The notes below the pieces were generated by a model that searched no databases, was not told the origin of the DNA, and saw only the letters and a program-made list of their open reading frames with translations. Below, one piece after another: positions 25,201 to 32,448 of a DNA stretch of 64,000 nucleotides. Each line of letters opens with the position of its first letter. Within the stretch, counting starts at the first letter, position 1. The stretch is from an uncultured Gammaproteobacteria bacterium. Its GTDB lineage: Bacteria; Pseudomonadota; Gammaproteobacteria; GCA-001735895. A program made the translations under genes and the position numbers. The stretch is taken from assembly GCA_964196115.1 (NCBI GenBank), contig CAXMRQ010000181.1, forward strand, positions 223 through 64,222, written 5' to 3'.

Positions 25201-25496
25201 CGGCCACAAATATGGCTGGTTGAGATTTTCATCACTATATTCTCGGAGCTACAAAGGTACAATGCGTTACCAATATTTTGGAAAGTTACCGACCGACACA
25301 TTTCGGTCCAAATTACTAATTATTAACAATTCAGTTTCGTTACTGCCCGCTGTGATAATTCATATGAGGCTGTCGCAGCCTGAAGCTACCCTCTAACAGA
25401 ACAATGACAGGTATTGCCGTGTCGCCCCTGTCTCGGGATAGTGCACGCCTACTAACTGCTGCAACATTACATTGGTGTACTATATTAGATGAGCAA

Positions 25497-26600
25497 ATGG
25501 CCATTTTTGAAAAAGAAATACTAAAGGTAATCTCGGACAAGGATATCGTCGACCTGTCGAAGGCTTCAATCAACCAAAATCTCTCTACTGTCGATTTTGA
25601 TCAGGATGCGAAATTCTTTTATATCACGATTGACCGAATACTATTTTCTAATCCAGTTAGCACGATCAAAACGGTGCTTGATGCGCATGGTTTTGTACCT
25701 AATCTAGAAAATATTTTATCCTGCCTGGACAGTCTTAACTTTTCCATATATGGCAAGAGCCCCGGAAAGGGCAATAAGAATTCGCCAGCTAAAGTCAGTG
25801 AATATTTCCCCTGCATCCGATTCGAATTACCGAAAAAAAATAATATTGGCGATACCCTTCGCAGCTTTTATGATGAGATTTCCAAATACGAATCGAAACT
25901 ATCTGACAAGAATTTACCCGCGTGGGCGCCGAACCCGGAACTTAAAAAGAACAAAGATCTGCGCGAGGAAATAAAGCAACTGAAGGCCGCCAACGAAGAG
26001 CTTTCAGATCAGGTTAGTGTGCTCACTCAACAATTAAACCGGGAGCAGAAATCACTTAGCAGGGCATCCCGGGCGCTGGATTCGCAACGCGTATTACCGG
26101 AAAACGCGAAAATGTGCCGAGTCGAGAAGGTCGACCTGAAGCGCCGAAAAATTAAAGTGAAGTGCCAGAAGGAAGTCATCGATATCCCGACCCATATGCT
26201 GGATCGAATTCCCAATTTTCAGGAGCGCTGCCTGATCATTCTGGAAGAAGGCCTGGATCTGCCGCTCGGCATTATCTTTTTCACCAGCGAGGAAATTGAT
26301 CGTCTGGAAAAGCGTACCGCGGAACTTTTATACGTCGAGAAAGACAGGTTTAAGGCTCGCGATTCTATGCGTAACGAATTTCAAATCAAAGCTGTGAATC
26401 CGATGGAGGCAGAAACCATAAAATCACTCAGCCGTGGCATGAAAGTGGTTATTTCTATCGTCGATGGTTACGTGGTTCATTTTTCCGTCTATGGCTCAAA
26501 AAATTCGGCGCAGTTTACCAGTCGCATACAGGAACAGCTGATTGTATATGACATTGCCAAAAATCAATTAGTTAACCTGGCTGAAGATAAAAAACAGTAA
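25497..26600 (+). CDS. hypothetical coiled-coil protein, first gene of island operon
   Basis: A central heptad-like segment (LREEIKQLKAANEELSDQVSVLTQQLNREQKSL) is present and I recognise no family. An alternative upstream start lies at 25404. The next gene begins 17 nt after this one ends. Confidence 0.5.
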   Translation: MAIFEKEILKVISDKDIVDLSKASINQNLSTVDFDQDAKFFYITIDRILFSNPVSTIKTVLDAHGFVPNLENILSCLDSLNFSIYGKSPGKGNKNSPAKVSEYFPCIRFELPKKNNIGDTLRSFYDEISKYESKLSDKNLPAWAPNPELKKNKDLREEIKQLKAANEELSDQVSVLTQQLNREQKSLSRASRALDSQRVLPENAKMCRVEKVDLKRRKIKVKCQKEVIDIPTHMLDRIPNFQERCLIILEEGLDLPLGIIFFTSEEIDRLEKRTAELLYVEKDRFKARDSMRNEFQIKAVNPMEAETIKSLSRGMKVVISIVDGYVVHFSVYGSKNSAQFTSRIQEQLIVYDIAKNQLVNLAEDKKQ

Positions 26601-26617
26601 AGCTTAGAGGCTCACCC

Positions 26618-31000: not shown

Positions 31001-32419
31001 AGGCAGAAACTTTTTGACAGCTTCCCTATCTGGGTAGTCAGAAAACAGACCGTTCCCTTTTTGCTGCCCTGTGTCGAGCAAAGCTTTGATCTTGTCATTA
31101 TCGATGAGGCGACTCAATGCCGGGTTGATGATTCGATGTCGTTGATGTTCAGGGCGAAAAAAATGCTGGTTGTCGGTGATGACAGGCAAACCGTACTGCA
31201 GAAAAATTCAGTCATCGATGATTACCTGTTCAAGGATCATGAGCTTGATGAGCATCTGAGAACCACGCAGGCACGCGGTTTCAAGGGCGGTGGTTCGCAT
31301 ATTTTTGCGCTGGTAAAAGCGATTAAACAGGCCTCGGTGATGCTCAATGAGCACTACCGCTGCCCGGCTGAAATTATCGAGTTCTCCAATAAGTACGTGT
31401 ATGACAATGAGCTCAAAATCATGCAATGGAGCTTGCCTGAACATGCCTCTTCGGTGGTGGTTGACTACAGCGAAAGGAAAATCGAAACCTCTAAAAAGGC
31501 CACTAGTGGCAAATTCAAGGGTATCGAAACTGAAATGGTCGAGCGCTATCTGAACTTTGTGCAGAGTTCGCTGAAGAAGATTGAAACAGCAAGTGGCGAA
31601 AAAATCGATATAGAAACTGATGTCGCGCTGTGCTACTTCCTGCTCAAAAACGAACCCTACATGAAGTTTGCGAAAGACAAATTTATTAAAAAACTCAACC
31701 GTGGAGAGGATGTACTCGACGGTGCTGGTGCCGCGCTACAAGGTAAGGAACGAGACTATATCTTTTATTTCTGGGATGTCACACGCTATAACATGGGTGC
31801 ATTTAAGCAGGGTGATGATGCGGATAAACGCAAAGGTGAACTGAATGTACTAATGAGTCGACCGAAGAAAAAAGCGTTTCATTTTCTACACCGGAACTTC
31901 GATCAACTTGAGCATGGCAGAACGCAGATAACTAATTACCTGTCGCGCGCGTTATACCGGCAGGAAGAAAACAAAAAATCGCCAGAATTTGGCGAAAATG
32001 CCTTAAATCATTCGTTTCTTGGTAGCCTGTTGAAATCTACCCTGGAAAAGTCGAGCAAACGCAGCATCAAAGAGGTGCGGCAAAATATACGCGAGAGCGC
32101 TTTAGATTTCAGGCAGGACATTGTGGTTGGTGACGCAGGAAGGGTGGTCGATCTAATCGCTTTTCCTGTTGGTGAGGCGAATAAAGTCACCGGCCTGGTA
32201 GACCTCTCCGGGTTTGGTTACGAAGAAACTGTAGGGCAGAATGTGGTCGATTATTTCTTCCAGCTGAAGCGTGCCGCTCCCGGCATCGATCCAGTGTTTG
32301 CTTTTCCTCACGAACTGATTAATGAAAATGGCCAGACATTCCGCTCATTGATGCATAAGCTTGAACATGTAGAATTTGCAAAAGCGGCGCAGAAAGAACC
32401 GCTTAAAAAAGCCTTATAG
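28097..32419 (+). CDS. giant (1440 aa) SF1 Upf1/DNA2-like helicase-family ATPase with large N- and C-terminal extensions
   Basis: Walker A is LLEGPPGTGKTHT (about aa 545). Motif II is LVIIDEATQ and motif III-like is VVGDDRQT (about aa 995-1025). A motif VI-like GELNVLMSRPKK follows. The ~520-aa N-terminal region is uncharacterised, and the C-terminal ~150 aa contain a weak PD-(D/E)xK-like stretch (VVDLIAFP...GLVDLSG). Confidence 0.75.
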   Translation: MAKTNLRHATTEIKLSKRGDRNNIFRIQRFINDHGFQIYSLENTAEGRKIFIPRFIFGQFRAEIKMILNNELSKNLSKKQAGPFEHQIEFLNREYFYFKSSGMDLNNLIIQDIEEREGSSGYITVSRRCLAALDKLLYDGRLQHPNDVLEEIISYHKLFQFSFVKGSKSITSALALRKDVLQKIERYTPRLAQKVILDGDVSNSGKAGPKPGVARHSGANKDANLYQPKLGERLSEKNIEVDYEEVFGDQKISLNPAAEQEDSGASGNSRGKAILSQFAIPLEAAEVKKFESGKFYFELSTTESSMFRDKFINDRSADYYLGFEIVDALFTFNRTIKTFRFPLYYTRVRIRESGRGVHLESRQNGQFYLNHLALAHLVGKFSETVAGVDNVDKFLNTLLAQDISVDQLNDRICLSRYLPIKESIFDRTREILLGYKDENGKGGILGDLKVNGIECDLESVYLYRAPKLLNPIDQALELDLDKINSIAHQSSKRFYQSLLGTFLTPELQLENPVEGEFAPITWMPGMLPQSTRALVDGLNKHNLVLLEGPPGTGKTHTIMNLLIHCINSKQRILIVSDQQAAIEALIEKLEEYLIGDDKGTPAERKWKDLLFGAIKVIDEVEVGDHSLEDMVARLTKAFKVQEPGPGSGASVDNLEKKIKVVKQNIAKLTAQITQKMIGQMSEDVPFDHRVLKKDQAQTDIKNLLEFLDLIQGKNSRHRQLIDSFVQNRFNLINANMQECYHFFKIPAKNFDAEVRILKDDEKILSLILQRKPKTLEAFHEITREYPRHEIIRYLESVIQAQVSPQGNSLLRLIKLIRSGFKSELLISTKILLHKVKDQIALLKMSDSWSDGLWGLLREIHESIRIGDEPSRALGLYRSIDQKTRIDVGNDPGKGSSIQGVLEEIADLYTQHDKIIKERLELNLHGIVRSATASKMGSGTNNITSIMALVDNLKQFKSISESGSVFEELRQKLFDSFPIWVVRKQTVPFLLPCVEQSFDLVIIDEATQCRVDDSMSLMFRAKKMLVVGDDRQTVLQKNSVIDDYLFKDHELDEHLRTTQARGFKGGGSHIFALVKAIKQASVMLNEHYRCPAEIIEFSNKYVYDNELKIMQWSLPEHASSVVVDYSERKIETSKKATSGKFKGIETEMVERYLNFVQSSLKKIETASGEKIDIETDVALCYFLLKNEPYMKFAKDKFIKKLNRGEDVLDGAGAALQGKERDYIFYFWDVTRYNMGAFKQGDDADKRKGELNVLMSRPKKKAFHFLHRNFDQLEHGRTQITNYLSRALYRQEENKKSPEFGENALNHSFLGSLLKSTLEKSSKRSIKEVRQNIRESALDFRQDIVVGDAGRVVDLIAFPVGEANKVTGLVDLSGFGYEETVGQNVVDYFFQLKRAAPGIDPVFAFPHELINENGQTFRSLMHKLEHVEFAKAAQKEPLKKAL

Positions 32420-32448
32420 CCGACACAGGGGTTGAACCCTGAGCGGTT

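Follow-up and report, generated by a model that had tools for sequence, protein, structure and literature searches.

What would an ion-driven stator of the flagellar kind be doing in an operon with a giant nucleic-acid helicase, with no flagellar gene nearby? The question is raised by four tightly packed genes in a 64,000-nucleotide (nt) stretch of contig CAXMRQ010000181.1 from an uncultured gammaproteobacterium (assembly GCA_964196115.1), which is called the window below. The genes encode, in order, a coiled-coil/barrel protein (gene 1), a MotA-like A subunit (gene 2), a MotB-like B subunit (gene 3) and a Upf1-like helicase of 1440 amino acids (aa) (gene 4). This cassette is a real stator-coupled helicase system that has apparently gone undescribed so far. 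The only immune use of a flagellar-stator-like ion motor that we know of to date is Zorya. Our preferred reading, to which we assign a probability of roughly 0.5, is that the four genes form a self-contained module, acquired horizontally, whose mode of action resembles that of Zorya although it is not itself a Zorya system.

The four-gene unit and its products

The cassette is an obligate four-gene unit. About 70 loci were collected in total, partly redundant in that some are copies of one contig, and linkage was counted only where the contig is long enough. A MotA-like gene follows gene 1 in 61/61 loci, a MotB-like gene follows in 54 of 54 and the helicase in 48 of 48; the three upstream genes are present in every helicase locus with upstream room (50/50), and complete cassettes are colinear without exception (51/51). 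At 90% identity, the helicase and gene 1 form similar numbers of clusters (218 and 184). Whether the helicase and a MotAB-like pair recur together had been left as a question by a preliminary description of the locus made from the window's sequence; the co-occurrence proves to be absolute.

Carriers belong to the Gammaproteobacteria, the Oligoflexia/Bdellovibrionota and the Myxococcota. A helicase-based genome search gave ten orthologous loci, in gammaproteobacterial metagenome-assembled genomes (MAGs), Oligoflexus/Oligoflexales, Myxococcota and one "Bacteroides" MAG; the first scan had been diluted by generic P-loop patterns, such that 10 of its 53 loci were orthologs. Five further loci were found in Microbulbifer rhizosphaerae, Exilibacterium tricleocarpae, a Bdellovibrionota MAG and two long contigs, and an independent search based on gene 1 gave 57 metagenome loci. 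The "Bacteroides sp." locus (L005, DSDZ01000096.1) has the same source as the metagenome contig Ga0116197_1000813 (L096), and its cassette shares ~65-80% protein identity with gammaproteobacterial cassettes; the Bacteroides label is probably a binning error.

In the window, the four open reading frames (ORFs) lie on the same strand with spacings of 17, -4 and 19 nt, exactly as the preliminary description had them (Table 1). The first ORF extends from 25404, yet the true start of gene 1 is most likely 25497, because homologs measure 365-377 aa and other gene callers place the start later. The leader upstream of gene 1 gave no Rfam match, and a promoter scan of it found no signal above shuffled expectation.

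In sequence comparisons, the stator pair is closer to the flagellar PomA/MotP and MotB/MotD proteins than to ZorAB or ExbBD. The A subunit has four transmembrane (TM) helices and ends ~35 aa past TM4, leaving no room for a tail; the tail-less, MotA-like channel of the preliminary description thus stands, and its ExbB-like label gives way to a closer kinship with PomA and MotP. Among NCBIfam models it matched PomA (1.9e-28), MotP (3.4e-25), TolQ (2.6e-5) and ExbB (6.6e-3), none of them at the equivalog cut-off (99.5 bits against 341 for PomA), and it matched no PADLOC ZorA model at E<=0.01. The B subunit exceeded the Pfam cut-offs for both MotB_plug (30.3 bits) and OmpA (39.1 bits) and matched the NCBIfam models MotD (4e-30; 105.3 bits against a cut-off of 283) and MotS (1.3e-21). 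The PADLOC models ZorB1, ZorB2 and ZorB3 also matched it over nearly full length (4.6e-14 to 3e-6), with flagellar MotB-type models scoring higher.

The residues of the ion pathway are intact. In alignments of orthologs from three phyla with Escherichia coli MotA and MotB, the A-subunit prolines P177 and P225 are invariant and fall on MotA P173 and P222, and the B-subunit TM residue Asp24 (nt 27502-27504), the aspartate to which attention had been drawn from the outset, is invariant and falls on MotB D32. A conserved amphipathic, plug-like segment (aa 39-56) directly follows the B-subunit TM helix, and the peptidoglycan-binding motifs of the OmpA type (GHTDD, NWxLSxxRA and NRRVS) are conserved. 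Absent from E. coli MotA but conserved in the A subunit is a cytoplasmic peptide at the N-terminus, GLxxKKYL...KRFDP. As for the FliG-contact positions, E. coli R90 falls on Leu and E98 on an almost invariant Asp, in a 20%-identity alignment that is unreliable. A plug-plus-linker together with an OmpA-type domain was identified in a phylogenomic study as a hallmark of flagellar stators (the "FIT" clade) that sets them apart from motors of the ExbBD/TolQR type (PMC12505986). By these criteria the pair looks flagellar in type, though it never occurs with flagellar genes.

Gene 4 encodes a bona fide Upf1/IGHMBP2/DNA2-type superfamily 1B (SF1B) helicase with a two-RecA fold and accessory insertions of the Upf1/IGHMBP2 type, in agreement with its first assignment as a giant SF1 helicase of the Upf1/DNA2 type. 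A family-specific N-terminal region (aa 1-520, including a variable linker at aa ~196-280) precedes RecA1, which carries the Walker A motif GPPGTGKT (nt 29738-29761); an all-helical insert of ~325 aa lies between motifs I and II (nt 30047-31021), and the DEATQ motif (nt 31103-31117) is followed by motifs III-VI and a C-terminal domain. Motifs I-VI (GPPGTGKT, DEATQ, VVGDDRQ, EHYRCP, LQGKERD and NVLMSRP) are invariant in alignments of 15 and of 59 members, a pattern that predicts an active ATPase under selection. The N-terminal 520 residues matched no known domain in Pfam, and an exhaustive phmmer search of 1.84 billion representatives placed them in the cassette family and nowhere else (51 clusters); all full-length members with this region measure 1300-1461 aa. 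The helicase is ~40% identical over 1440 aa between phyla and 57-83% identical among gammaproteobacteria.

The C-terminal domain of the helicase has the predicted order alpha-alpha-beta-beta-beta-alpha-beta in an AlphaFold2 (AF2) model, with invariant D1352, D1369 and R1392 and a conserved motif, DYYFQLKR. A PD-(D/E)xK remnant had been suspected here, and the topology and the two aspartates do fit one. The lysine position, however, is occupied by Ser, Cys or Ala, the domain has no Pfam match, and hhalign comparison with the REase_MTES_1575 domains of 24 related helicases gave a probability of 1.6%; for these reasons the domain is an unproven candidate for a PD-(D/E)xK-like nuclease.

Gene 1 had been described simply as a coiled-coil protein. 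Its AF2 model (pLDDT, the predicted local distance difference test, 67) contains such a helix, long and single, at aa 147-197 (nt 25935-26087), but the label is incomplete: an alpha/beta domain (aa 1-135) precedes the helix, and after it come a pair of small beta-barrels, at aa 204-261 and aa 274-331, and a final helix at the C-terminus. The barrels are predicted to be OB/cold-shock-like. No family was found for the protein in Pfam, NCBIfam, PADLOC or PHROGs, and these searches, like a sequence-level search of the PDB, returned coiled-coil noise only.

Table 1. Positions in the window of the cassette genes and of the features around them
Feature	Position	Strand	Basis
Left repeat copy, an orphan duplicate of the last ~36 pirin codons and stop	25097..25204	-	Repeat search and alignment
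Non-coding leader, presumed promoter region	25205..25496	+	5' of gene 1; region inspected directly
Gene 1, 367 aa (alternative upstream ATG at 25404)	25497..26600	+	Start from homolog lengths
Gene 2, 272-aa MotA/PomA-like A subunit	26618..27436	+	Pfam MotA_ExbB, 4e-18
Gene 3, 214-aa MotB-like B subunit	27433..28077	+	Pfam MotB_plug and OmpA
Gene 4, 1440-aa Upf1-like SF1B helicase	28097..32419	+	Pfam AAA_11/AAA_12
Helicase C-terminal domain, aa 1307-1423	32015..32365	+	AF2 secondary structure and conservation
Right repeat copy, the 3' end of the intact pirin gene (32449-33312, -)	32449..32556	-	Repeat search and alignment

An accessory locus among housekeeping genes

The cassette is accessory and was gained by insertion, as judged from the repeat that flanks it, the state of the same site in two relatives and its lower GC content. 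A 108-nt direct repeat (92% identity) brackets it exactly, and positions 25201-32448, which the preliminary description gave for the island, do not mark gene ends but the interval between the two copies. Identity between the copies begins exactly at the pirin stop codon, and the repeat also matches the pirin 3' end of the two relatives, L124 and L125, which were recovered through members of the methionyl-tRNA synthetase (MetRS) cluster. In appearance the repeat is an att-type or insertion-generated duplication, and the 7.2-kb interval contains no integrase. A 97-aa ORF at 25008-25301 (-), whose reading frame differs from that of the orphan pirin fragment it overlaps and for which there is no family match, is most likely not a gene.

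The interval between apbC and pirin is a strain-variable hotspot, because the site is empty in one relative and holds a different cargo in the other. In L124 (about 77% identical at the nucleotide level), only 166 bp separate apbC from pirin, and the gap is empty (L124 8645-8812). In L125, which is 95-98% identical in metG, apbC and pirin, the interval is filled by another 7.3-kb cargo (956-8223) encoding Usp, Sel1 and methyltransferase proteins, 369-aa and 458-aa unknowns and an ADH_N fragment, with no cassette homologs and no recognisable defence system among them. In the window, this interval (22908-32448) is occupied by genes for BNR-like and thioredoxin-like proteins together with the cassette; an exact-protein look-up of the pirin for an empty site returned the same arrangement only. 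The GC content of the cassette is 0.454 against 0.498 in its surroundings, and that at third codon positions is about 0.49-0.53 against 0.54-0.60. Among the other loci, flanks are entirely different between genomes.

Repeats were found at the flanks of two of 11 other loci: a 94-nt direct repeat of 85% identity in L006, a Myxococcales MAG (5807-5899 / 14556-14648), and a 48-nt inverted repeat of 87.5% identity in L062, a Bdellovibrionota MAG (7133-7180 / 14458-14505). These may be generic REP (repetitive extragenic palindromic)-like elements and not insertion scars. Elsewhere in the window, a mobB-mobA-modCBA block after dcd (36225-40248) is missing from the corresponding position of L124, where matches are limited to short repeats of ~100 nt (at ~40271-40384 and 44495-44576 in the window); it represents a second indel in the neighbourhood.

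The genes around the cassette were surveyed in about 25 loci, with PADLOC and Pfam for 93 flanking proteins and precomputed Pfam assignments for the rest. Two genes recur. A ~310-aa NERD-domain gene adjoins the cassette in seven loci of the Oligoflexia type (L004 6097-7029(-), L114 15981-16928(+) and L115-L119), upstream and divergent in six and downstream in one, with other flanks that largely differ; it could be a clade-specific fifth component or residual synteny. A 118-aa MazG-like gene lies directly upstream of the cassette in five loci (L002 6422-6778(-), L080, L090, L093 and L109), an adjacency that lineage synteny explains better than functional linkage does, because four of the five share wider synteny with ilvD downstream.

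A role in defence is plausible, as suggested by the architecture and accessory status of the cassette. In PADLOC and NCBIfam, the closest relatives of the helicase are anti-phage or candidate Upf1-like proteins (PDC-S37 at 4e-27, MkoA/MkoC, Hhe and ProA, all partial matches). The NERD-domain gene beside the cassette in seven loci also speaks for an immune role. Several observations nevertheless weigh against a horizontally acquired immune module. The surveyed neighbours have housekeeping or metabolic roles (for example, glutamate synthase, ilvD, DAHP synthase, phosphofructokinase, tRNA synthetases and transporters), and no association with defence islands was seen in those loci, the PADLOC matches being to generic kinase or DEAD domains; guilt by association therefore has nothing to offer. 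Likewise, Pfam searches of the 53 other ORFs in the window returned housekeeping families and generic kinase or DEAD matches, and no defence island. No integrase or transposase was found in or adjoining the cassette of the window and no tRNA near it, nor were cassette copies found on phages, plasmids or viral contigs. Some sub-lineages share synteny on both sides of the cassette, which indicates vertical inheritance after acquisition in those lineages, and the family is unusually conserved and length-uniform for an immune gene. Finally, the nuclease identity of the helicase C-terminal domain is unsupported by profiles.

These points bring forward a different explanation, namely that the cassette is a non-immune host machine for membrane-anchored, ion-powered nucleic-acid transactions, such as uptake and processing of extracellular DNA, membrane RNA surveillance or replicon handling, accessory but beneficial in marine gammaproteobacteria, Oligoflexia/Bdellovibrionota and Myxococcota. 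Housekeeping neighbourhoods free of defence-island and mobile-element genes would be expected of such a machine, as would high conservation, a rigid architecture and lineage-level synteny; furthermore, Upf1-like helicases and cold-shock/OB barrels are classic handlers of RNA and single-stranded DNA. It fits less well with the presence or absence of the cassette at one hotspot between strains of 95-98% identity, with the insertion-type duplication at its flanks and with a patchy occurrence across distant phyla in a family that is rare overall. In addition, no genes for a DNA-uptake channel, pilus or secretion were linked to the cassette in any locus examined. We consider this explanation unlikely, if worth serious thought, and continue to prefer an immune module.

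A possible mechanism and its reversal

If the cassette does work like Zorya, genes 2 and 3 would form a peptidoglycan-anchored, ion-driven stator unit of the flagellar (PomAB/MotAB) type, presumably with a 5:2 stoichiometry, and the MotB-like plug would hold it closed until the envelope is perturbed. Once activated, the unit would conduct ions along the Asp24 pathway, and this flow would rotate or rearrange the MotA-like pentamer. Since the A subunit has no ZorA-style tail, the signal would be relayed in trans through gene 1, which may additionally hold single-stranded nucleic acid, and would terminate at the N-terminal region that is specific to this helicase family. Gene 4, as a catalytically intact Upf1-like 5'-3' SF1B motor, would next act on incoming nucleic acid at the membrane, engaging it and unwinding, stripping or degrading it by means of its own C-terminal domain or, in one clade, of an adjacent NERD nuclease. 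We infer not only the stoichiometry but also the physical coupling of the parts, the trigger, the target and the defence phenotype.

A more specific proposal is that the cassette represents a new class of 5:2 motor, in which a plug/OmpA stator was co-opted with a trans-acting coiled-coil/OB-barrel "rotor/adaptor" to gate or power a Upf1-like helicase at the inner membrane, as a second and independently evolved Zorya-like solution. We offer it tentatively, at somewhat less than even odds. If true, chemiosmotic energy or the state of the envelope would be coupled directly to the translocation or destruction of nucleic acid, and there may be a direct evolutionary link from flagellar stators to immune motors.

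Alternatively, the wiring may run in reverse and lead to abortive infection: on sensing foreign nucleic acid in the cytoplasm, the helicase and the OB-barrel protein would unplug the channel, and the infected cell would be halted as uncontrolled ion influx abolishes its membrane potential. Abortive infection commonly acts through membrane depolarisation, and deletion of the MotB plug reportedly turns the stator into a growth-arresting proton leak (Hosking et al., 2006); the plug segment conserved directly after the B-subunit TM helix would suit this arrangement, as would the unproven status of the nuclease domain that the forward mechanism needs. Yet the invariance of all helicase motifs suggests real translocation work beyond sensing, the conserved peptidoglycan-binding motifs fit an envelope-anchored sensor or motor, the NERD nuclease neighbours of one clade point to nucleic-acid destruction, and in Zorya the motor is the sensor and not the effector. 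Reversed wiring therefore seems quite unlikely to us, and the forward direction, from envelope to helicase, is the one we retain.

Relation to known ion motors and helicases

Zorya is one of the closest known systems, described as a peptidoglycan-binding 5:2 motor that recruits a helicase or nuclease (PMC11946911, PMC11890865). Its types I-III combine ZorAB with ZorCD, ZorE or ZorFG. Like Zorya, the cassette is a compact operon, with no flagellar genes nearby, that joins a MotA-like protein and a MotB-like protein with a TM aspartate and a peptidoglycan-binding domain to a cytoplasmic partner of the nucleic-acid ATPase/nuclease kind, and its B subunit matches the ZorB hidden Markov models; an envelope-anchored 5:2 motor that signals to a helicase is the likely shared logic. 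The differences lie in the parts. In every Zorya subtype, ZorA is reported to carry a long cytoplasmic coiled-coil tail at its C-terminus, which defence requires (PMC11946911), whereas the 272-aa A subunit of the cassette has no such tail and no ZorA match. Both subunits are closer to flagellar proteins, and the B subunit has a MotB_plug domain; a separate coiled-coil/OB-barrel protein is present; and the effector is a Upf1-like SF1B helicase as opposed to the SNF2/DEAD protein ZorD, the HNH protein ZorE or ZorFG (DUF3348 and DUF2894). None of the cassette proteins matched ZorC, ZorD, ZorE, ZorF or ZorG. Because the ZorA tail, a ZorA match and any equivalent of ZorC-G are all missing, the cassette is not a member of Zorya, even though it may work like one, and the preliminary view of it as reminiscent of Zorya with a different architecture holds.

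The helicase invites comparison with the giant Upf1-like helicases of 1500-1900 aa that combine AAA_11, AAA_12 and REase_MTES_1575 (PDC-S37, Hhe, ProA, PLuB and MkoA/MkoC). The two groups have the SF1B core in common, with an extended segment inserted between motifs I and II, and both carry a large region at the N-terminus as well as a small domain that comes after RecA2. In contrast, similarity is confined to the ATPase motifs, the best stretches matched by the PDC-S37, Mko, Hhe and ProA models spanning about 60-310 residues around them; the N-terminal 520 aa are unique to the cassette, and its C-terminal domain is not detectably MTES_1575 or DUF559. The giant helicases are encoded by single genes or have other partners, and none is linked to MotAB. 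NCBIfam scores tell the same story (ProA, 81 bits against a cut-off of 1500; Hhe, 75 against 2000), and the partial nature of the matches rules out full-length membership in Hhe, Mokosh, PDC-S37, ProA or PLuB. Widespread stand-alone Upf1-like helicases of 1500-1900 aa were also seen in loci L011-L053 (e.g., L011 8663-13366, L015 8579-13684 and L036 8849-13426), with a long motif I-II insertion and a C-terminal REase_MTES_1575 domain, one with GerE and one with DUF3320. In these proteins REase_MTES_1575 occupies the same position as the C-terminal domain of the cassette helicase, and they are probably the PDC-S37/ProA-like relatives from which that helicase diverged.

Could the cassette nevertheless be a catalogued Zorya subtype (I-III) or another named defence system? 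The nearly full-length match of the B subunit to a PADLOC ZorB model (4.6e-14) would speak for this. The lack of ZorC-G matches speaks against it, as does the restriction of the PDC-S37, Mko, Hhe and ProA matches to the ATPase motifs. PADLOC, NCBIfam, Pfam and PHROGs were all tried for a match to a known system, short of the newest DefenseFinder/PADLOC models, and the match was rejected on domain-level or partial hits; the literature searched, which did not extend to most subscription journals, described three Zorya types, no fourth and no MotAB-Upf1 cassette. The locus could not be matched to a described system when it was first noticed, and identity with a named one now seems very improbable.

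With flagellar MotAB, PomAB and MotPS stators, the cassette pair shares the four-TM A subunit with two prolines and a B subunit with a TM aspartate, plug and OmpA-like domain. It differs from them in lying far under all flagellar equivalog cut-offs, in the extra N-terminal peptide of the A subunit and in its constant place in an operon with gene 1 and the helicase, never beside flagellar genes. ExbBD-TonB and TolQRA belong to the same superfamily of 5:2 ion-driven motors, as the weak TolQ and ExbB matches reflect; unlike these, the cassette encodes a B subunit with a plug and an OmpA domain and an output partner that is cytoplasmic and not periplasmic, and neither the cassette nor its flanks contain a TonB- or TolA-like partner. 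That the pair is a spare flagellar or gliding stator, or a Tol/Ton energiser, beside an unrelated helicase is scarcely credible: its best family matches are indeed flagellar (PomA/MotP and MotD/MotS/MotB), but their scores are far below the flagellar cut-offs, the four genes, overlapping or adjoining one another, were never found apart in the 48-61 loci across phyla where this could be tested, the B subunit has an OmpA domain, unlike ExbD/TolR, and, as first observed for the window, no gene of a flagellar, Tol or Ton apparatus occurs within about 10 kb there or in the annotated loci.

In sum, a tail-less PomAB/MotAB-like stator with an obligate coiled-coil/OB protein and a helicase of another superfamily offers a natural comparison for how 5:2 motors signal to cytoplasmic effectors, given that signalling in Zorya is attributed to the long tail of ZorA. 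The cassette is relevant, too, to the question whether the plug and OmpA features called "flagellar-specific" are truly confined to flagella. Should a role in defence be confirmed, this would be a new system missed by current tools (PADLOC and NCBIfam), and it would mean that defence systems can stand alone in housekeeping contexts where guilt-by-association searches fail. Should it not be, a Upf1-like helicase coupled to an ion motor would be a new kind of membrane-linked nucleic-acid machine.

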